NCBI GenBank assembly: GCA_051745305.1
Contig: JBNJDY010000002.1
Coordinates: 2,822 to 66,821, forward strand
DNA length: 64,000 nucleotides
Direction: 5' to 3'
Source of the DNA: Thermoplasmatota archaeon
GTDB taxonomy: Archaea; Thermoplasmatota; Thermoplasmata; Halarchaeoplasmatales; Halarchaeoplasmataceae
In this document: positions 905-42,322 of the stretch, piece by piece
How positions within the stretch are numbered: position 1 is the first letter of the stretch
Layout: the number at the start of each line of letters is the position of its first letter
The notes under the pieces: model-generated
Told to the model about the DNA's origin: nothing
The model's input: the letters and a program-made list of their open reading frames with translations, nothing else
Databases searched by the model: none
Made by a program: the position numbers and the translations under genes

Positions 905-2827
905 GTGAACTATATGAGTGTGGAAGACATTTTGAACGATGCAAAAGAAGCGATCAGTGAAGTATTATCTAGACCTGTGAGTGTAACCAATATAGAGTTT
1001 GAAGGCTCGACTATCGTTATTTACACCAAAGATTTAGATGAATTCACGAAAGAATCAGGAACAGTCAAAAAGCTTGCAGAAAAAATAAAGAGAAGGATTT
1101 CGATCAGACCGGATCCTTCATTATTGGATACTCCTGAAGAAGCAGAAAGTAAAATCAAAGAGATAATTCCAGAGGAAGCCAAGATAACTGATATTTTTTT
1201 CAAAGAAGATTTAGGCGAAGTAACTATCGAAGCTGAGGCTCCTGGTATAGCAATAGGTAAAAAAGGAAAAATTTTAAATGAAATTAAAAGAGAAACTGGA
1301 TGGGCGCCAGATGTTGTACGTGCCCCACCTATACCTTCAAAGACGGTAAAGGATATCAGAAGTTATTTGAGAGCAGTTCGAGGCGAAAGAAGAAAGTTCC
1401 TCAATAAACTCGGTAGAAAAATAAACAGAGATACTCGGTCTGGGGAAACTTTCGCAAGAATTACCGCTCTTGGAGGTTACAGGGAAGTAGGAAGGTCCGC
1501 TCATCTACTTCACACAAGAGATAGTAAGGTTTTAATCGATTGTGGTGCAGATGTATCATCTGATGATGATGGAACACCTTACCTTAACGCTCCAGAACTG
1601 CTACCTTTAGATAGTATTGATGCCATTATTCTCACTCACGCTCATCTTGATCATAGTGGTTTAATTCCAGCACTTTATAAATATGGATTCGAGGGTCCTA
1701 TATATTGTACGCCACCTACTAGAGACTTAGCCGCTCTTCTACAACTAGATTATATTAAAGTGGCCGTCGGAGAAGCTAGAGAGCCACCTTATAAGTCATC
1801 TCATGTAAGAGAGGCCGTAAAATATACTGTACCGTTGGAGTACGGAGAAACCACAGACATAGCGCCGGATATAAGATTAACACTTCACAATGCCGGCCAT
1901 ATATTGGGATCAGCTGTAGCACATCTTCACATAGGTGATGGAGATTATAATGTTGCTTTCACAGGAGATATAAAATTTGACAATACTTGGTTATTTAATC
2001 AAGCTGTAAACAAATTTCCGAGAGTTGAAACAGTCGTTATGGAATCTACTTATGGTGGATATCATGATCTACAACCTAGCAGGAGAGATGCAGTTGCACA
2101 GTTAAAAGATATTTTAGAACAGCATCTAACTCATGGTAGTGGAAAGGTACTTGTTCCTGTTTTTGCCGTAGGTAGGTCACAGGAGGTTATGTTGGTAATA
2201 GAGGAAGCCATGAATAAAGGTGAAATACCAAAGGCACCGGTTTACTTAGATGGTATGATATGGGAAGCTACCGCCATCCATACAGCTTATCCGGAATTTT
2301 TAAATAACAAACTCAAGAAAAAGATATTCCATCAGGATGAAAATCCATTCTTGTCTGATATATTCCAGCAAGTGGACAGCAGGGATATGAGAGAAGAGAT
2401 ATGTGGCAGTTCGGAACCTGCTATAGTTCTAGCCACCGCCGGTATGATGAATGGGGGACCAGTGTTAGAGTATTTCAAGGCATGGGGAGATGATCCTGAA
2501 TCTGCTATAATATTCGTTGGTTATCAAGCAGATGGAACCATTGGAGATAAAATCCAAAAAGAGTATGATCACATCACTTTAACACAAAATGGGGATCCAA
2601 TCGATATAAAAGTAAAATTGAAAGTCTATACCTGTGAAGGATTCTCAGGTCACAGTGACAGAATACAGTTACTTCATTACATAAGTGGAATGAAACCTAA
2701 CCCAGAAAGAGTCATAGTTAGTCATGGGGAAGAAGGTAAGTGTACTAATTTAGCTAGCACCATCTATAAAAAGTATGGAATGGAAACTAGGACTCCTAAA
2801 AATCTGGAAACGGTTAGATTATACTAA
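905..2827 (+). CDS. Archaeal CPSF1 / FttA-type KH-domain plus metallo-beta-lactamase/beta-CASP ribonuclease
   Basis: 640 aa. N-terminal KH-like region, then the HxHxDH motif (THAHLDHSG) and beta-CASP motifs. Gene order with psmB matches the conserved archaeal exosome/proteasome neighbourhood. Confidence 0.85.
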   Translation: MNYMSVEDILNDAKEAISEVLSRPVSVTNIEFEGSTIVIYTKDLDEFTKESGTVKKLAEKIKRRISIRPDPSLLDTPEEAESKIKEIIPEEAKITDIFFKEDLGEVTIEAEAPGIAIGKKGKILNEIKRETGWAPDVVRAPPIPSKTVKDIRSYLRAVRGERRKFLNKLGRKINRDTRSGETFARITALGGYREVGRSAHLLHTRDSKVLIDCGADVSSDDDGTPYLNAPELLPLDSIDAIILTHAHLDHSGLIPALYKYGFEGPIYCTPPTRDLAALLQLDYIKVAVGEAREPPYKSSHVREAVKYTVPLEYGETTDIAPDIRLTLHNAGHILGSAVAHLHIGDGDYNVAFTGDIKFDNTWLFNQAVNKFPRVETVVMESTYGGYHDLQPSRRDAVAQLKDILEQHLTHGSGKVLVPVFAVGRSQEVMLVIEEAMNKGEIPKAPVYLDGMIWEATAIHTAYPEFLNNKLKKKIFHQDENPFLSDIFQQVDSRDMREEICGSSEPAIVLATAGMMNGGPVLEYFKAWGDDPESAIIFVGYQADGTIGDKIQKEYDHITLTQNGDPIDIKVKLKVYTCEGFSGHSDRIQLLHYISGMKPNPERVIVSHGEEGKCTNLASTIYKKYGMETRTPKNLETVRLY

Positions 2828-2875
2828 ATGGTCAGGTCTTTTACCAAAAATAAATGATAAAAAATGAGTTTTTAG
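2828..2875. terminator. Convergent intergenic region with oligo-T runs on both strands (aCPSF1 versus rps2)
   Basis: T5-T6 tracts immediately follow both stop codons. This is the usual archaeal terminator signal. Confidence 0.3.
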
Positions 2876-3496
2876 TTATAATTCCTGTTCGAAATCTTCG
2901 ACTTCAAATGGGAACTCTTCTCTTTTTTCTATATCTCCCTTTATCATAGCCATTTCTCTTGAAAGTAACCAGAACACTAGTGCGAGAGCCTTTCTACCTT
3001 TGTTGTTAGTGGGTAATGCTACGTCTATATTTTCTAGTCTGTTATTGGTATCTACAAGTCCTATTATTGGAATACCTATTCCTACAGCCTCTCTTACAGC
3101 TTGTCTATCTGCAGCTGGATCAACCACTACCATTATCTCTGGTTCGATAAAGGAATGTAGAGATGGATTTGTAAGAGAGCCAGGTATGAATCTACCAGCG
3201 ATACTCATCGTACCGACTATTTCAGAAAACGTTTCGATAGGCTTTTTACCATACTGTCTAGCTGAAACTAAAAGTATTCTTTCAGGGGGATAACGTGATA
3301 ACAGTTTTGCAACGGATGTTATCCTACTGTCGCTTTTTTTAACATCCAAAACGAACAGACCATCATCTCTAACTTTAAAAATGAATGGCTCCATCGAAGC
3401 ACTTTTTTGCTGCGTTCCTATATGGACGCCTGCAGTCAAATATTGATCTTCTGGTATCAGCATATCTTCTTCGTCTTCAACCATAGTTTCTTCCAT
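2876..3496 (-). CDS. rps2: 30S ribosomal protein uS2
   Basis: Motif LTAGVHIGTQQK and overall uS2 similarity. Length 206 aa. Confidence 0.9.
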   Translation of the reverse strand: MEETMVEDEEDMLIPEDQYLTAGVHIGTQQKSASMEPFIFKVRDDGLFVLDVKKSDSRITSVAKLLSRYPPERILLVSARQYGKKPIETFSEIVGTMSIAGRFIPGSLTNPSLHSFIEPEIMVVVDPAADRQAVREAVGIGIPIIGLVDTNNRLENIDVALPTNNKGRKALALVFWLLSREMAMIKGDIEKREEFPFEVEDFEQEL

Positions 3497-3498
3497 TG

Positions 3499-3678
3499 TT
3501 ATTCCTCTCTTAAAATTGAGATCGGTATTACACTTTTTTCATACTCGGCCACAGCGATATCCACTGGATCTACCATATCTTCTGGGACATCGATCAGAGG
3601 CGGAGCTCCCATAGATATCTGCAGAGACCTTGCGCCTATGATTCTAGCCTTTTCAAATCGAGTGTGTTCCGTTGTCAT
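3499..3678 (-). CDS. rpoK: DNA-directed RNA polymerase subunit K (Rpb6/omega homologue). The true start is probably the internal Met ([26 protein letters not shown]).
   Basis: Conserved RpoK core [19 protein letters not shown]. The ORF-track N-terminal extension is hydrophobic and unlikely to be real. The gene sits next to rps2 as in many archaea. Confidence 0.7.
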
Positions 3679-3784
3679 ATTTACTAATCCATCTACCCAA
3701 AACAAAGTTATATAATAAGCTTTTTGTTCGACATACCCCATTTTTCCCTAATCTTATATACATCTTACGCTTTCGACCAGTTGC

Positions 3785-4405
3785 ATGGTACAAAAGGTTG
3801 TTGTTTTGCTATCAGGAGGGATAGATTCTCCCGTTGCCGCACATCTCTTCGCTGAGGCAGGGGCAAAAGTCATATTGTTAAATATAGACCATAGACCCTT
3901 CACCGATTATAAGACCATAAAAAATGTTGATAAACTAGTCGATAGATTGAAAGAAATTCATCCTAATATCGTTTTTTATCGAACTAAATTTGAAGATATT
4001 CATAAGTTGATCACAAAGAATACAGAATCCAGCTTTAGATGTATACTCTGCAGACGTATGATGTACAGAGCAGCAGAGAAGTTAGCAGAAAACCTCGAAG
4101 CTTCCTCGATAGCTACAGGTGAGTCCCTGGGGCAAGTCGCTTCACAAACCTTATCTAATTTGGCGACTGAAGATAAGGCTGTTGATATCCCCATTCACAG
4201 ACCGTTGATCGGATTAGATAAAAATGAGATCGTTGATATCGCTAAAGAGATCGGAACATTTTATATATCCATAAAACCAGCAGTTTGCTGTTTACTCACA
4301 CCTTCTGGACCAAGGATAAAGAGTTCTAACGATGAAGTTTTACGGGAAGAAAAAAACATAGAGATAAACAAATTGTTGGATAAATTGGAATATTTTAAAC
4401 CGTAA
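3785..4405 (+). CDS. ThiI-like PP-loop ATP pyrophosphatase / sulfurtransferase domain protein lacking the THUMP RNA-binding domain
   Basis: Motif LLSGGIDSPVAAHL is a ThiI-type PP-loop. The protein is only 206 aa, with C-terminal Cys residues (CCLLTPSGP). Confidence 0.6.
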   Translation: MVQKVVVLLSGGIDSPVAAHLFAEAGAKVILLNIDHRPFTDYKTIKNVDKLVDRLKEIHPNIVFYRTKFEDIHKLITKNTESSFRCILCRRMMYRAAEKLAENLEASSIATGESLGQVASQTLSNLATEDKAVDIPIHRPLIGLDKNEIVDIAKEIGTFYISIKPAVCCLLTPSGPRIKSSNDEVLREEKNIEINKLLDKLEYFKP

Positions 4406-4416
4406 TTTAAAGGATA

Positions 4417-5421
4417 TTATCTGCCGATGTATTCTGAATATAGACTTTTTGCTTTATTAATATCCTCGGTTCCTTTTACTATTATTCGACCGTCTTTGAA
4501 GATATTCAACTCGTAACCTTCAACGCTTAACCTGACCAACTGTTGTCCAATTTTTTTTGCATATCTATATCTCTTCACTATATTGTCTAGATCCACTTTA
4601 TCCTTATCGGAAGGTATTATTTGTATTGCATCTCGTCCACAAAGTTCAACAGTCTCATCATCTTCCCCTTCAAGATATCTAAAGTTTTTATTGGCACAGC
4701 AGTCACAATCTTCTTTTTTTCTTACTTCTGTGAGGTCAAATTCGTTACGCCAGATATCTACTGTTAGGAGTTCTTTTCTATTTTCCTCATCTACTAAAAA
4801 TTTTACAGCCTCTGTTGCTGCAATATTAGCGACAACTCGTGGAAGTGTAAAAAGAACACCCTCCGAGGCACAGGTTCCCATACTTTCGCTATTAGGTTGT
4901 TCAGGTATTAGACATCGAAGACATGGTGCCCCCTCATGTGTGATATTCATGGTCATACCGTAGGTCCCAAGGACAGCAGAGTATATCCATGGGATATCAT
5001 GTTTTATGCAGGCATCATTTATCAGATATCTAAGTTTCATGTTGTCTGAAGCGTCCATAACAATGTCGGAACCCTTAATCAGTTTTTCAATATTCTTTGT
5101 ATTGACGTCTAAAACATGTGAATTTATATTGATATCCGAGTTTATTTTTTTTAATTTATCCTCCGCGACTTCAGCTTTTGCCTTCCCGATGTCGTTTTCA
5201 TCGAATAGAGCCTGTCGCTGAAGGTTTGATAACTCCACAAAATCTCTATCTGCGATAACTATCTCGCCAACACCACTTCGGGAGAATCCCTCTGCCATAA
5301 CCGTTCCAAGGGCTCCCTGACCTAGTATGGTAACTTTGCTTTCGCTAATTTTTTTCTGTCCTTCTTTTCCGATTTCTTTTAATACTGTATGTCGGGAGTA
5401 TCTATCAGATAGATCGGTCAT
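4417..5421 (-). CDS. ThiF/MoeB/UbaA-type E1-like enzyme (adenylates a SAMP/ThiS/MoaD-type carrier), with Zn-binding CxxC pairs and a roughly 100-aa C-terminal extension
   Basis: Rossmann motif ILGQGALGTVMAEGFSRSGVGEIVIADRDFVELSNLQRQ. Also CLRC...CDCC motifs and a catalytic-Cys-like GTCASEGV. Confidence 0.75.
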   Translation of the reverse strand: MTDLSDRYSRHTVLKEIGKEGQKKISESKVTILGQGALGTVMAEGFSRSGVGEIVIADRDFVELSNLQRQALFDENDIGKAKAEVAEDKLKKINSDININSHVLDVNTKNIEKLIKGSDIVMDASDNMKLRYLINDACIKHDIPWIYSAVLGTYGMTMNITHEGAPCLRCLIPEQPNSESMGTCASEGVLFTLPRVVANIAATEAVKFLVDEENRKELLTVDIWRNEFDLTEVRKKEDCDCCANKNFRYLEGEDDETVELCGRDAIQIIPSDKDKVDLDNIVKRYRYAKKIGQQLVRLSVEGYELNIFKDGRIIVKGTEDINKAKSLYSEYIGR

Positions 5422-7232: not shown

Positions 7233-7754
7233 ATGTCTGCAAAAGAAAGAGTCTTGAAGGGATTGACATTAGTTCCCCGATTACTGAAAAATGAAATCCA
7301 TAAGAATAGGAGTTCTATCCCTTTCTTGATGTGTATATCTTTTTTAGTATCATTCATTGGTGCTAGATTGTGGGTGACTTATTTAGGAGCTAGTGAAACC
7401 ACGCCACCTCCCACATCAATAGGTCGGAATGTAGTTTTAGGTGGTTATCATATTCACCATATCACATATGGTATCATACTGATATCTTTAGCTGCATGGT
7501 TGTCTATTAATTACTGGAGCCGAAGCATAGTCAGGATCAGTTCTATTTTATATGGGCTTGGACTAGGTTTGATAGTTGATGAGCTCGGATTCATAATAGG
7601 TGGGATCGAGGCTTATAGAGCTGATAGAGAAGTATTTTATATCGCTGTATTGATTATTGCTATATTGTTGAGTATAGTGTACTTCCCATCATTCTACAGT
7701 AGTTTAAAAAGAGACGTAAAACGATGGAAACGAATATTCCTAAATAGAAAGTAG
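7233..7754 (+). CDS. Small integral membrane protein (3-4 TM helices), function unknown
   Basis: Hydrophobic segments. Co-directional and adjacent to the large membrane protein. Confidence 0.4.
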   Translation: MSAKERVLKGLTLVPRLLKNEIHKNRSSIPFLMCISFLVSFIGARLWVTYLGASETTPPPTSIGRNVVLGGYHIHHITYGIILISLAAWLSINYWSRSIVRISSILYGLGLGLIVDELGFIIGGIEAYRADREVFYIAVLIIAILLSIVYFPSFYSSLKRDVKRWKRIFLNRK

Positions 7755-9656: not shown

Positions 9657-10895
9657 ATGAAAAAATACAAGGAATTTGGTGGTCATTTGGAAGAAGAAGA
9701 CATAAGGGATAGTTCTAGAAAGCTGACGCAAAAAATCGATGAAATTCAAAAGAAACACGAACAGCTTCTAGAAGAGACTAATACACAGGGTTTCAATAAT
9801 GACTATGTAAGGAATGAATTAGAGCGGCTTAAAAGAGAAACAAGAGAGATAAAAAAAGAGATAGCTCGTTTGAAGAAACCTCCACTTATAGTAGGAACCA
9901 TCAAGGAATCTTTACCTAATGGACAGGCAGTAATCGAAAGCTCTACAGGACCAGATTTCATCGTCAATGTTGCTGATTATTTACCTAAACACCTAATCAG
10001 ATCGGGGACTAGAGTTGCCCTTAATAAACAAACTCTATCTATTGTAAAAACATTACCACCCTCTGCTGATCCTAATGTGATGGGTGCTGAAATAGTGTCC
10101 AAACCAGAGATTACATATAATGACATAGGTGGATTGAACGACCAAATCCTTGAAGTTAAAGAAACAATAGAAGAACCACTGCTTTACCCAGAGAAATTTA
10201 AAAAAGTCGGTATCGAACCACCTAAGGGTGTCCTTCTTGTTGGTCCGCCCGGTACGGGTAAGACCATGATCGCTAAAGCAGCAGCTAATCGTACGAATGC
10301 AACTTTTATAAAGTTCGTTGGATCCGAATTAGTTCAAAAGTATATCGGTGAAGGTGCTAGAATGGTCAGAGAGCTATTTGATATGGCTCGGGATAAAGCA
10401 CCTACTATAATCTTTATCGATGAGTTGGATTCAGTTGCTACGAAAAGATTAGAAGGTGCAACCTCTGGTGATAGAGAGGTTCAAAGAACGATGATGCAGT
10501 TACTCTCAGAACTTGATGGATTCGATTCTATTGGTGAGATCAAAGTAATGGGCGCAACTAATAGACCAGAACTTTTAGATAAAGCTCTTCTCAGGCCCGG
10601 TAGGTTCGATAGAATAATCAAAATACCATTACCTAATAAAGACGCTAGACGGAAAATATTTGAAATACATATGGCTAAAATGTCTATGGATGGAGATATA
10701 AATCTAGATAACCTCGCTAAGAAAACAGAGAACGCTAGTGGTGCTGATATCAAAGCGATATGTACTGAAGCCGGGATGTTCTCAATTAGAGACAATAGAG
10801 ATCAAACTAACTATGATGATTTCCAAAAGGCTATAGATAAGGTCCTGAGCGACTCTCCAGAAAGGGAAATTAAAAAACAGGTCATGTTCGCATAA
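9657..10895 (+). CDS. pan: Proteasome-activating nucleotidase (AAA+ ATPase, Rpt homologue)
   Basis: N-terminal coiled coil, Walker A GPPGTGKT, Walker B IIFIDELD, AAA second region of homology. 412 aa. Confidence 0.9.
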   Translation: MKKYKEFGGHLEEEDIRDSSRKLTQKIDEIQKKHEQLLEETNTQGFNNDYVRNELERLKRETREIKKEIARLKKPPLIVGTIKESLPNGQAVIESSTGPDFIVNVADYLPKHLIRSGTRVALNKQTLSIVKTLPPSADPNVMGAEIVSKPEITYNDIGGLNDQILEVKETIEEPLLYPEKFKKVGIEPPKGVLLVGPPGTGKTMIAKAAANRTNATFIKFVGSELVQKYIGEGARMVRELFDMARDKAPTIIFIDELDSVATKRLEGATSGDREVQRTMMQLLSELDGFDSIGEIKVMGATNRPELLDKALLRPGRFDRIIKIPLPNKDARRKIFEIHMAKMSMDGDINLDNLAKKTENASGADIKAICTEAGMFSIRDNRDQTNYDDFQKAIDKVLSDSPEREIKKQVMFA

Positions 10896-10912
10896 GATAG
10901 GGTCACTAGATA

Positions 10913-11077
10913 TTATTTATCAGTTTCTTTTTCTAGATCTTCTTCCAGAATCAGAACTCCCACGTAATCGCATTTTCGACAGTGATATTTGTAACCAGTC
11001 ATCATACCAGCTTCTGATACGATATCTGTGCTCCCGCATTTAGGGCACCTTTTTATTGTTTTATTAATATATACCAA
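10913..11077 (-). CDS. Possible small zinc-ribbon protein (C-P-K-C ... C-R-K-C). Only a TTG start is available.
   Basis: Translation ...KRCPKCGSTDIVSEAGMMTGYKYHCRKCDYVGV... contains two CxxC pairs. There is no in-frame ATG. The ORF is absent from the track because of its length and start codon. Confidence 0.2.
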   Translation of the reverse strand: MVYINKTIKRCPKCGSTDIVSEAGMMTGYKYHCRKCDYVGVLILEEDLEKETDK

Positions 11078-11094
11078 CTCGATTGTAAAGTTGT

Positions 11095-11310
11095 CCCCTG
11101 GCTGTAACAGTAAGGTTCATCGTAGGGGACGTCCATCTCCCCGTCCTGACTCTAGCCAGGGGCTTGTCCGGTTTTGGGGTTGGTCCTTGTTCATAGAAGG
11201 ACGTCGCGTCCTGATCTCACAAGGGGACCCATCAAAACCATGTCCCGCACTTGCATCACGATTCATAGTCCTGGGAAACTCCCCGTGACCTTCTATGCAG
11301 GACATATAAA
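11095..11310. ncRNA. GC-rich island (about 58% GC against a background near 33%), densely self-complementary. It is a candidate structured ncRNA, possibly SRP/7S RNA or RNase P RNA; strand was not resolved.
   Basis: Multiple perfect stems: CCCCUGGCU/AGCCAGGGG, GGACGUCGCGUCC, CCUUG...CAAGG, GUCCUG...CAGGAC. Both overlapping ORFs translate to Arg/Pro-rich nonsense. The tRNAs in this genome are similarly GC-rich. Confidence 0.45.
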
Positions 11311-11453
11311 ATACATCTATACTATTATTTCAATCCACCGGACTTGTAATTAAAGAAGATCTTATAATCATTGGGTTGTAGACAAAAAGTATATATAATT
11401 CGTTAATGTGGTGTATGGCTGATATAAGTGGACTCTGGCAATGGAGGAACTTA

Positions 11454-11933
11454 ATGCCTAAAGGCCAGTATAGCGATGAAAAAATATTGTTAATCGCAAG
11501 TTATAGGGAAGAGTACGATCGAAATGCCCTAAGGAAGATTAGAAAATACATTTTTAAAATTCAACCAGATAGGATAATCATATCTAAGATAATTGAAGAA
11601 GATTCTACATCAGAACTAGTGGACGCCAATTTAGGGATGGAAGAAAAAAAAGATTTTTTGGAAACAGTTAGGGAAGGAAAAAAGACCCAGGCTGACGAGC
11701 ATGCAGAGAATTTGATAAAAATGGTTGAAGCTGTTGGTATTCCAGCAGAAGTTAGATTAAGAAAAACAGAAGAGATATCCGATGAAATCATCCAGGATTT
11801 TAATCGAATCGGTGTTGATTATGTTATCATCCATAGTAGTAAAAAAGGTCCTATTTCCAGTATTATAGAAGGCTCTACCGCTAAAAAAGTGAAAAAAGAA
11901 CTGCCGGAAAAGACTGTGATTCCAGTTGATTGA
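11454..11933 (+). CDS. Universal stress protein (UspA family)
   Basis: C-terminal VDYVIIHSSKKGPISSIIEGSTAKKV is a Usp ATP-binding motif. The likely start is at MPKGQYSDEK, not the track's upstream Met. Confidence 0.65.
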   Translation: MPKGQYSDEKILLIASYREEYDRNALRKIRKYIFKIQPDRIIISKIIEEDSTSELVDANLGMEEKKDFLETVREGKKTQADEHAENLIKMVEAVGIPAEVRLRKTEEISDEIIQDFNRIGVDYVIIHSSKKGPISSIIEGSTAKKVKKELPEKTVIPVD

Positions 11934-36084: not shown

Positions 36085-36191
36085 CGTTTTAACTTAATGC
36101 ACCGTTTTTATTAAACTTTTTGGTTGACCTAAATATTTGATTTTGCGATTATCTACTCTTATAAAAGATACTATAGTAAATAGAAAATTGA

Positions 36192-36291
36192 TAGCGGGGA
36201 GTGGATTTGAACCACTGGTCTCCGGGTTCCTCAGGTGCTTTATCATGCACCATATGAGCCCGACGGGTTTTCCTAGCTACCCTACCCCGCT
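36192..36291 (-). tRNA. tRNA-Met (anticodon CAU) with initiator-type features and a 25-nt intron after position 37
   Basis: Cloverleaf acceptor AGCGGGG/CCCCGCU with an A1:U72 pair, anticodon stem UCGGG/CCCGG (three G-C pairs), loop CUCAUA, T-arm AGUGG-UUCAAAU-CCACU. The intron UGGUGCAUGAUAAAGCACCUGAGGA is required to close the anticodon stem. No encoded CCA. Confidence 0.75.
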
Positions 36292-36389
36292 CTGTTGGTA
36301 AAATCAGGAACTACTAACTTCTGGGATTCCTATATTAGGATGCATTTTATAAATCTTTCTATCCATATAGCTCTTTTAAACGCCTCTAT

Positions 36390-42248: not shown

Positions 42249-42322
42249 TGGGCTCAGCCGGATTCGAACCGGCGACCTCCGCCATGTCAAGGCGACGTCA
42301 TAACCAACTAGACTATGAGCCC
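42249..42322 (-). tRNA. tRNA-Val (anticodon GAC)
   Basis: GGGCUCA acceptor, D-arm GUCU...UGAC, anticodon stem UCGCC/GGCGG with loop UUGACAU, T-arm GCCGG-UUCGAAU-CCGGC, discriminator A. 74 nt, no encoded CCA. Confidence 0.85.

Follow-up and report, generated by a model that had tools for sequence, protein, structure and literature searches.

The DNA considered here is a window of 64,000 nucleotides (nt) from a Thermoplasmatota archaeon (contig JBNJDY010000002.1), and our subject is a compact, strongly structured island in one of its intergenic regions. The island lies close to the gene for PAN, the proteasome-activating ATPase. On the minus strand it is followed by a short open reading frame (ORF) for a zinc-ribbon micro-protein, and on the other side lies a divergently oriented usp gene. 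Scanning with an 80-nt sliding window (GC ≥ 0.55) places the GC peak of the whole stretch at 11083-11285, with a maximum of 0.60 against a mean of 35.8% (0.358) for the window. We conclude with high confidence that the island is a minus-strand gene for a three-hairpin archaeal box H/ACA small RNA (sRNA), an orthologue of the RNAs known as Pab40/Pf7 and Afu4. A box H/ACA guide RNA directs the conversion of specific uridines in ribosomal RNA (rRNA) to pseudouridine.

An original prediction, made from the letters of the sequence, had described positions 11095-11310 as a GC-rich, self-complementary island holding an unassigned structured non-coding RNA, not a gene fragment, and in its essentials this description was right. 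The stretch is the most GC-rich of the window, although the composition then given for 11095-11310 (about 58% GC) drops to 53.7% on measurement. The self-complementarity is also borne out. The minus strand of 11087-11310 folds with a minimum free energy (MFE) of -86.1 kcal/mol (z = -3.7), and none of 200 shuffled sequences folds as well; the fold of the plus strand is weaker (z = -2.5). ORFs across the island had been dismissed as nonsense, and comparison with homologous loci shows that those of 86, 62, and 59 amino acids (aa) that cross it are not conserved as coding sequences.

Family match, covariation and coding strand

A search against Rfam, with H/ACA models included, had been named in the original prediction as a check, and it gave a match to RF00064, the HgcG (Pab40) family. 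The match covers 11087-11357 on the minus strand with a score of 48.5 bits, and the full model (positions 1-276) is aligned with its three hairpins in register. The E-value is 3.5e-10 over 64 kb and 3.8e-12 locally, and this is the sole non-tRNA Rfam match in the window at E ≤ 0.05. Five diverged homologues of the island match HgcG independently (E from 1.8e-10 to 8.6e-3), again as the only non-tRNA Rfam match in each, and the homologues score 24-49 bits against the model. The first 57 model positions are unpaired and align to AT-rich DNA upstream of hairpin 1. RNA sequencing in Pyrococcus abyssi places the start of the Pab40 transcript at the opening nucleotide of its first H/ACA motif (PMC4652768), so model positions 1-57 are best read as promoter DNA.

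A divergent housekeeping RNA, either that of the signal recognition particle (SRP) or that of RNase P, had been the first suggestion for the island, and such an RNA would likewise be GC-rich, structured, intergenic, and conserved. Models of SRP RNA and RNase P RNA, however, gave no match at E ≤ 10 across 10800-11500 on both strands, nor any at E ≤ 0.05 across the whole window. The structure that is supported consists of three independent local hairpins with no long-range helices, its 212 nt are short for either RNA, and a third of it is deleted in one subclade, a loss that an essential RNA would not tolerate. We regard this identity as extremely unlikely, and the alternative left open by the original prediction, that the element is something else, was the correct branch. 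The other Rfam matches at E ≤ 10, to sR52 (E = 3.9) and to a flavivirus element (E = 10), were rejected as noise, and C/D models gave nothing in the region at the gathering threshold.

Homologues of the island are found in a consistent genomic setting. The flanking PAN is 97% identical to that of a metagenome-assembled genome (MAG) of Ca. Saliniplasma halalkaliphilum, and 67-89% identical to those of other salt- and soda-lake Thermoplasmata MAGs, Ca. Natronoplasma among them. In nhmmer searches, 22 of 23 Thermoplasmata loci had the sRNA a short way downstream of PAN. In the remaining locus, L018 (7225-9415), PAN is present (72% identity) without the sRNA and the zinc-ribbon gene downstream, so that synteny is broken there. 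One of the 22, L015 (JBKHKA010000010.1), carries the label ‘Candidatus Aenigmatarchaeota archaeon’ and has the same arrangement of PAN, zinc-ribbon gene, and H/ACA sRNA; its PAN is 70% identical and its RNA matches with E = 1.2e-30, and the label or the binning looks wrong.

The secondary structure was tested for covariation over 10 helices and 55 pairs in an alignment of 22 sequences, with slid pairing partners and 500 shuffles as controls. Paired cells make up 95.2% of the total, compared with 32-50% when partners are slid, and changes on both sides of a pair that preserve pairing occur in 26 of 55 pairs, compared with 4-9 in the slid controls. No shuffle out of 500 reached the observed value on four of five measures, and 2/500 did so on the fifth, which counts further pair types. 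In hairpin 1 (helices 1-3), 91-97% of cells are paired and 10 of 19 pairs have compensatory changes; for hairpin 2 (helices 4-6) the corresponding values are 95-99% and 11 of 18. The structure, its covariation, its motifs, the homology, and the complementarity of hairpin 3 described below are what the analysis shows directly.

This test also sorts the stems that had been pointed out initially. Three of them stand as helices supported by covariation. Hairpin 3 has CCCCUGGCU/AGCCAGGGG as its lower stem, and in hairpin 2 the upper stem is CCUUG/CAAGG and the apical stem GGACGUCGCGUCC. The pairing of GUCCUG with CAGGAC does not stand; as drawn it bridges different hairpins, and the alignment gives it no support. 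A proposed long-range helix, GUCCGGU/ACCGGAC, is not supported by the alignment either. ACCGGAC (about 11339-11345 on the plus strand) falls within a conserved promoter-proximal motif, TCCGNTGG, and the sequence it was proposed to pair with forms the 3′ side of the lower stem in hairpin 2, a strand that varies among homologues and covaries with its own local partner.

Several features identify the coding strand. About 10% of paired cells (some 116 of 1121) are G.U; on the plus strand these would be A.C mismatches, which places the gene on the minus strand. Equally strand-specific are the ACA boxes and the GA and UGA strands of the kink-turns (K-turns). A plus-strand reading was rejected: it has the poorer fold, about 10% A.C mismatches, and no ACA or K-turn logic.

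The same alignment addresses an alternative that the original prediction had set against itself, a GC-rich pseudogene of foreign origin. Homologous loci show a conserved RNA and not a degraded gene. They differ by compensatory changes of pairs and by loop indels of 1-2 nt; compensatory substitutions together with indels that are not multiples of three indicate that this is not a decaying coding sequence, and synteny across 22 loci indicates that it is not a recent foreign insertion.

Anatomy of the hairpins

The predicted sRNA spans 11092..11303 on the minus strand, about 212 nt, with putative ends; the 5′ end is placed from a TATA-like box about 26 nt upstream together with the start of the Pab40 transcript at its first hairpin. 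The MFE fold consists of three consecutive hairpins, all on the minus strand. Each is built from a lower and an upper stem separated by an internal loop, with a K-turn and a 3′ ACA. Such elements define archaeal H/ACA guides (PMC3608112; PMC2584109). In each hairpin the K-turn-type strands are NGA facing NNN-GA-N, with tandem G.A pairs, an assignment made at the level of the motif only.

Hairpin 1 (11241..11303) reads, from 5′ to 3′, GUCCUGCA - UAGAAG - GUCACGG - GGA - apical stem-loop - UAU-GAA - UCGUGAU - GCAAG - UGCGGGAC. The first and last elements form the lower stem, UAGAAG (11290-11295) and GCAAG (11250-11254) are the two sides of the internal loop, GUCACGG/UCGUGAU is the upper stem, and the K-turn is formed by GGA (11280-11282) facing GAA (11262-11264). 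The ACA lies at 11241-11243, and its AC also supplies the last two bases of the 3′ strand of the lower stem.

Hairpin 2 (11165..11240) is ordered as UGGUUUUG - AUGGGUCC - CCUUG - UGA - apical stem - UAU-GAA - CAAGG - ACCAACCC - CAAAACCG - G - ACA. Its lower stem is UGGUUUUG/CAAAACCG, the internal loop has AUGGGUCC (11225-11232) on the 5′ side and ACCAACCC (11177-11184) on the 3′ side, and above the upper stem CCUUG/CAAGG the K-turn, UGA (11217-11219) facing GAA (11190-11192), leads to the apical stem GGACG/CGUCC. The ACA is at 11165-11167.

In hairpin 3 (11092..11162) the order is CCCCUGGCU - AGAGUCA - GGACGG - GGA - apical part - GAU-GAA - CCUUACU - GUUAC - AGCCAGGGG - ACA. The guide strands are AGAGUCA (11147-11153) on the 5′ side and GUUAC (11104-11108) on the 3′ side; the upper stem has 6 pairs and one bulged nucleotide, the K-turn is GGA (11138-11140) facing GAA (11116-11118), and the ACA occupies 11092-11094.

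The motifs are conserved to a high degree. K-turn strands are kept in 22/22 sequences for hairpin 3 and in 21-22/22 for hairpin 2; of the 15 sequences that have hairpin 1, 14-15 keep them there. Hairpin 3 ends in ACA in 22/22, hairpin 2 in ACA or AUA in all but one sequence (L008), and hairpin 1 in ACA, AUA, or AAA (ANA) in 19/22, being degenerate in L008. Within hairpin 3, GUUAC, GAG, and UGAA are invariant in 22/22 and AGAGUCA is present in 20/22; GUUAC followed by 9 nt and ACA occurs in 22/22. Hairpin 2 has GGGUCC and CAACCC in every sequence, and UGA/UGA in 21-22/22. The loop strands of hairpin 1 are also highly conserved, as GAAG and GAUGCAAG.

By analogy with biochemical work on archaeal H/ACA ribonucleoproteins, from which the mechanism is taken over (PMC3608112), L7Ae would bind each hairpin at its K-turn, and Cbf5-Nop10-Gar1 at the ACA box and the lower stem. 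Both internal-loop strands would then pair with rRNA, one on each side of a target U-N dinucleotide, and Cbf5 would isomerise the unpaired U to pseudouridine. Expression of the sRNA, its binding by these proteins, and the modifications themselves are inferred from this likeness.

Predicted targets in rRNA

Hairpin 3 is predicted to guide pseudouridylation of a loop uridine in helix 69 of 23S rRNA, equivalent to U1915 of Escherichia coli and U2016 of P. abyssi. Its guide strands AGAGUCA and GUUAC form 7 + 5 = 12 Watson-Crick pairs with GUAAC-UC-UGACUCU of helix 69, and none of 1000 shuffled guides reached 12 pairs in a 5.4-kb rRNA operon. For the target search, metagenomes were scanned with GUAAC-UN-UGACUCU plus conserved flanks, and at least 120 archaeal 23S contigs carry GUAACUCUGACUCUCUUAAGGUAGCC, which is helix 69 with an unpaired U at the position of E. 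coli U1915. The geometry agrees with known active guides. In P. abyssi the ACA of such guides lies 14-15 nt from the target U or from the base of the upper stem, and this stem has 6 bp (PMC2377435); hairpin 3 has 14 nt from upper stem to ACA in 22/22 sequences and a six-pair upper stem. Motif 3 of Pab40 targets P. abyssi U2016 with strong activity in vitro, and Pf7.3, Afu4.3, a Methanocaldococcus jannaschii motif, and the haloarchaeal HP2/Hvo2 have been assigned to the same helix 69 uridine. Hairpin 3 keeps its guides, ACA, spacing, and K-turn unchanged among loci whose PAN proteins are just 67-97% identical, which points to purifying selection on the guide function.

Within the metagenome 23S sequences listed (L031-L150), some have a strongly divergent segment of the peptidyl-transferase centre about 560-620 nt downstream of helix 69. 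It reads GAUUGGUUCUCCGCCGUCGUCCCUUCCCAUCC where other 23S contigs have GGUUUGGUACCUCGAUGUCGGCUCUUCCCAUCC, and recalls the archaeal clades whose rRNA diverges in this centre, described in bioRxiv 10.1101/2024.11.12.623245.

For hairpin 2, the most likely target suggested by the sequence comparison is the uridine equivalent to E. coli U2586 (2621 in Haloarcula marismortui). The hairpin has GGUC(CCC)...AACCC blocks in common with stem II of Pf7/Pab40 and with haloarchaeal HP1, for which the published pairing is GUC/GAC plus AACCCG/UGGGUU around 23S position 2621 (H. marismortui), that is, E. coli U2586. Its guides form 5 + 4 Watson-Crick pairs at GGGUU-[UA]-GACC in at least 93 archaeal 23S loci. 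Spacing to the ACA is 14 nt from the AACCC guide and 17 nt from the last pair of the upper stem. A second candidate site, GGGGUU[UA]ACCCA, offers 6 + 5 pairs and was seen only in loci of other lineages (at least 17).

For hairpin 1, the search for a target covered the 120 listed archaeal 23S loci, 37-42 16S sequences, E. coli rRNA, both strands of the window, and tRNAs. Chance matches scoring 10.5-12 occur in the AT-rich window itself, and complementarity alone therefore does not suffice to assign a target. About 320 nt past the 515 motif of 16S, a variable region offers one weak lead, ...GAUGCAU[UG]ACUUG..., found in 10 of 37 sequences. Reasoning alone did not bring the published target of Pab40 hairpin 1, 23S U2588, into agreement with the guide in the Rfam consensus, and this line was dropped.

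The pocket, upper stem, and K-turn of hairpin 1 are deleted in 7 of the 22 aligned sequences. These represent eight fetched loci (L009-L012 and L019-L022, with L011 identical to L010), and in most of them the sRNA region lies at about 7380-7600. What the subclade keeps of it is a 7-bp stub, GUCCGGU-NNN-ACCGGAC, with ACA or AUA after it, and its hairpins 2 and 3 are intact. Judged from the alignment, one guide function would have been lost naturally in part of the order. Where it is present, hairpin 1 may be non-productive or work differently, and it may have a lineage-specific or non-guide role, for example in rRNA folding or on a non-rRNA target.

Several points count against a three-hairpin guide RNA and need to be weighed together. 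The RF00064 score of 48.5 bits is below the curated gathering cut-off of 77 bits, and at the gathering threshold Rfam gives no match in the island region; we take the sequence to be a divergent HgcG relative beyond the curated boundary of the family, and a score under the cut-off explains why standard annotation pipelines miss the sRNA. The 23S contigs that support the target of hairpin 3 were retrieved with a pattern built from its own guide, which is partly circular; what is not circular is that the GUAAC-UC-UGACUCU variant of helix 69 is common in archaea, and that no shuffled guide in 1000 equalled the pairing in the rRNA operon. No rRNA of the same lineage occurs in the window or in loci L001-L023, so the target assignments rest on the rRNA of other archaea. 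Of the loci checked for rRNA in this way only L024, from the Asgard archaeon Ca. Lokiarchaeum ossiferum (CP104013.1), holds a 23S gene, at about 1547-4485 and a few kb from a PAN homologue. The nine pairs of hairpin 2 are not significant alone, and its assignment to U2586 therefore rests on homology; in the one operon tested its best score was 8.0, a value reached or exceeded by 720 of 1000 shuffles, and the match needs a 3-nt spacer (ACC) between upper stem and guide. In hairpin 1 the distance from upper stem to ANA is 11-12 nt, outside the rule for active guides, and reaches 13-14 nt only if two basal pairs of the upper stem open; the distance on the 3′ strand from the K-turn G.A to the ACA is 19-20 nt, compared with 22-23 nt in hairpins 2 and 3; and no target that was recurrent or above background was found for it in the sequences scanned.

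Some of these observations could suggest an RNA with the shape of an H/ACA guide that no longer guides, either as a chaperone of rRNA folding or as a decaying relic. The off-rule geometry of hairpin 1, its missing target, its deletion in 7/22 sequences, the degenerate ANA in L008, and the statistically weak match of hairpin 2 are all compatible with such a state. It does not account for the invariance seen in hairpin 3, where guides, ACA, spacing, and K-turn are all kept, and we consider this explanation, together with the foreign pseudogene discussed above, very improbable.

Relatives, putative promoter and neighbouring features

The closest comparison for the H/ACA sRNA is Pab40/Pf7/Pho40 (RF00064) of the Thermococcales. 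In both, three hairpins follow one another, and a pocket, a K-turn, and an ACA recur in each; the 3′ guide of hairpin 3 is nearly identical (UGUUAC) and has the same helix 69 target, and the GGUCCCC and AACCC blocks of hairpin 2 are in common. Differences are found in each hairpin. The 5′ guide of hairpin 3 is GGGUUAG in Pab40 and AGAGUCA here, which tracks the stem of helix 69 (UAACCC and UGACUCU, respectively), so that the guide strand has changed in step with its target. The guides of hairpin 1 are UAGAAG/GCAAG here and AAGCGAGGA/UGCGAC in Pab40, with a distance from stem to ACA that is 3-4 nt shorter here, and the spacer in hairpin 2 is 3 nt here compared with 1 nt in Pyrococcus. The hosts also differ, an AT-rich genome from salt or soda lakes here and a hyperthermophile for Pab40/Pf7.

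In Haloferax volcanii and relatives, HP1/HP2 (Hvo1/Hvo2) are homologues of Pf7 stems II and III, assigned to 23S positions 2621 and 1956/1958 (H. marismortui numbering), or E. coli 2586 and 1915/1917. Hairpins 2 and 3 here are adjacent, 3 nt apart including the ACA. Haloarchaea are without a homologue of stem I, as is the subclade lacking hairpin 1, and the loss of one hairpin within a single order thus parallels the haloarchaeal condition. HP2 has been proposed to act on two neighbouring uridines through alternative folds, whereas the guide here extends only for the U1915 equivalent, and the next guide nucleotide beyond that register is a mismatch. Afu4 of Archaeoglobus fulgidus is also a three-hairpin H/ACA sRNA, compared here by description only; its hairpin 3 is close to Pab40.3 and can guide modification at L1970, the helix 69 position, and the published targets of its hairpins 1 and 2 differ between papers. 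Among eukaryotes, the H/ACA small nucleolar RNAs snR191 of yeast and U19 of human guide the same helix 69 pseudouridines. These are two-hairpin H-box/ACA RNAs without K-turns, and the likeness concerns the target site.

The family is well characterised, but this orthologue seems to have been neither described nor annotated before. No report linking H/ACA guides with Thermoplasma or Thermoplasmata was found in the searchable literature, and the present case would add such a guide to the halo(alkali)philic Thermoplasmata of salt lakes, a group that has received little study and includes Ca. Saliniplasma and Ca. Natronoplasma. The sRNA explains a conserved GC island that had gone unannotated, its 22-sequence alignment could seed a broader model, and it extends the Pf7/Pab40/Afu4/haloarchaeal guide for a near-universal helix 69 pseudouridine to another major branch of the Euryarchaeota. 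General understanding of H/ACA RNAs is unchanged by it. Two features are less ordinary: hairpin 1 departs from the spacing rule and is an orphan among the guides, and a two-CPxCG zinc-ribbon gene is tightly linked to the sRNA in a conserved arrangement.

A promoter-like element, TCCGGTGGATTGAAATAAT, is located at 11324..11342 on the minus strand, and consists of a TATA-like box, TTGAAATA, preceded by TCCGNTGG. Across the homologues the box is TTGAAATA or TTAAAATA, with TT.A.ATA invariant in 22/22, and it is centred about 26 nt upstream of hairpin 1; we infer that it is the promoter of the sRNA. The TCCGNTGG motif itself (11335-11342, minus strand) is kept in all homologues directly upstream of the TATA-like box, in the intergenic stretch that separates the sRNA from the divergent usp gene. 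It sits where a TFB recognition element (BRE) would be, and is longer and more GC-rich than expected for one.

Downstream, the two-CPxCG zinc-ribbon ORF (10913..11077, minus strand, 54 aa) starts 14 nt past the ACA of hairpin 3. Both in the window and in 21 of 22 fetched loci (L001, L003-L017, and L019-L023), an ORF of this family begins on the same strand 10-64 nt past the ACA; in L002 no zinc-ribbon ORF with a standard start was found downstream of the sRNA. The proteins are 50-60 aa long with 15 invariant columns and the consensus ...CPKCGS..I.PEAGFITGYKYHC.DC.YVG.... Matches in Pfam are weak and to generic zinc ribbons only. The best match in the PDB, also weak (E = 2.6e-5), is an HVO_2753-like zinc-finger chain, Bc, of the Pyrobaculum calidifontis 70S ribosome (9E71), and given this likeness to a ribosome-bound protein the micro-protein could itself act on the ribosome. 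Nop10 was rejected as its identity: the spacing is CxxC-17-CxxC, there is no match to the Nop10 Pfam family, and Nop10 in the PDB gives E of about 0.07.

This close linkage raises the question of whether the structured element acts in cis, as a regulatory or stabilising 5′ leader of the zinc-ribbon gene, instead of guiding in trans. The conserved short distance on the same strand fits such a leader, as does the fact that in most loci there is no room for a promoter of the gene's own and no clear oligo-T terminator follows the hairpins. It would leave unexplained, however, the homology to HgcG in six independent sequences, the three ACA boxes and three K-turns, and the invariant loop strands that match helix 69 exactly. 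Co-transcription is in any case compatible with guide function, since the P. abyssi H/ACA RNA Pab21 is on one transcript with a C/D RNA. A leader acting only in cis is thus very improbable. The H/ACA guide, read as such, is possibly co-transcribed with the zinc-ribbon gene. There is a small but real chance that the two form one transcript, in which case an mRNA would supply, from its 5′ leader, a guide RNA that modifies the ribosome, and that hairpin 1 separately has a lineage-specific or non-guide role.

Elsewhere in the window, three borderline GC stretches all lie inside long ORFs, and the only intergenic islands besides 11083-11285 are two tRNA genes. The original prediction had named two tRNAs as the comparably GC-rich segments and was correct on this point, where default ARAGORN and Rfam give just one. 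The first, tRNA-Val (42249-42322), forms a GC island of like strength. The second is a tRNA-Met with anticodon CAT and a 25-nt intron (36192-36291, minus strand), which underlies a GC island at 36188-36301; it was missed by default ARAGORN, and by Rfam both at the gathering threshold and at E ≤ 0.05, and was recovered by ARAGORN with the intron option.

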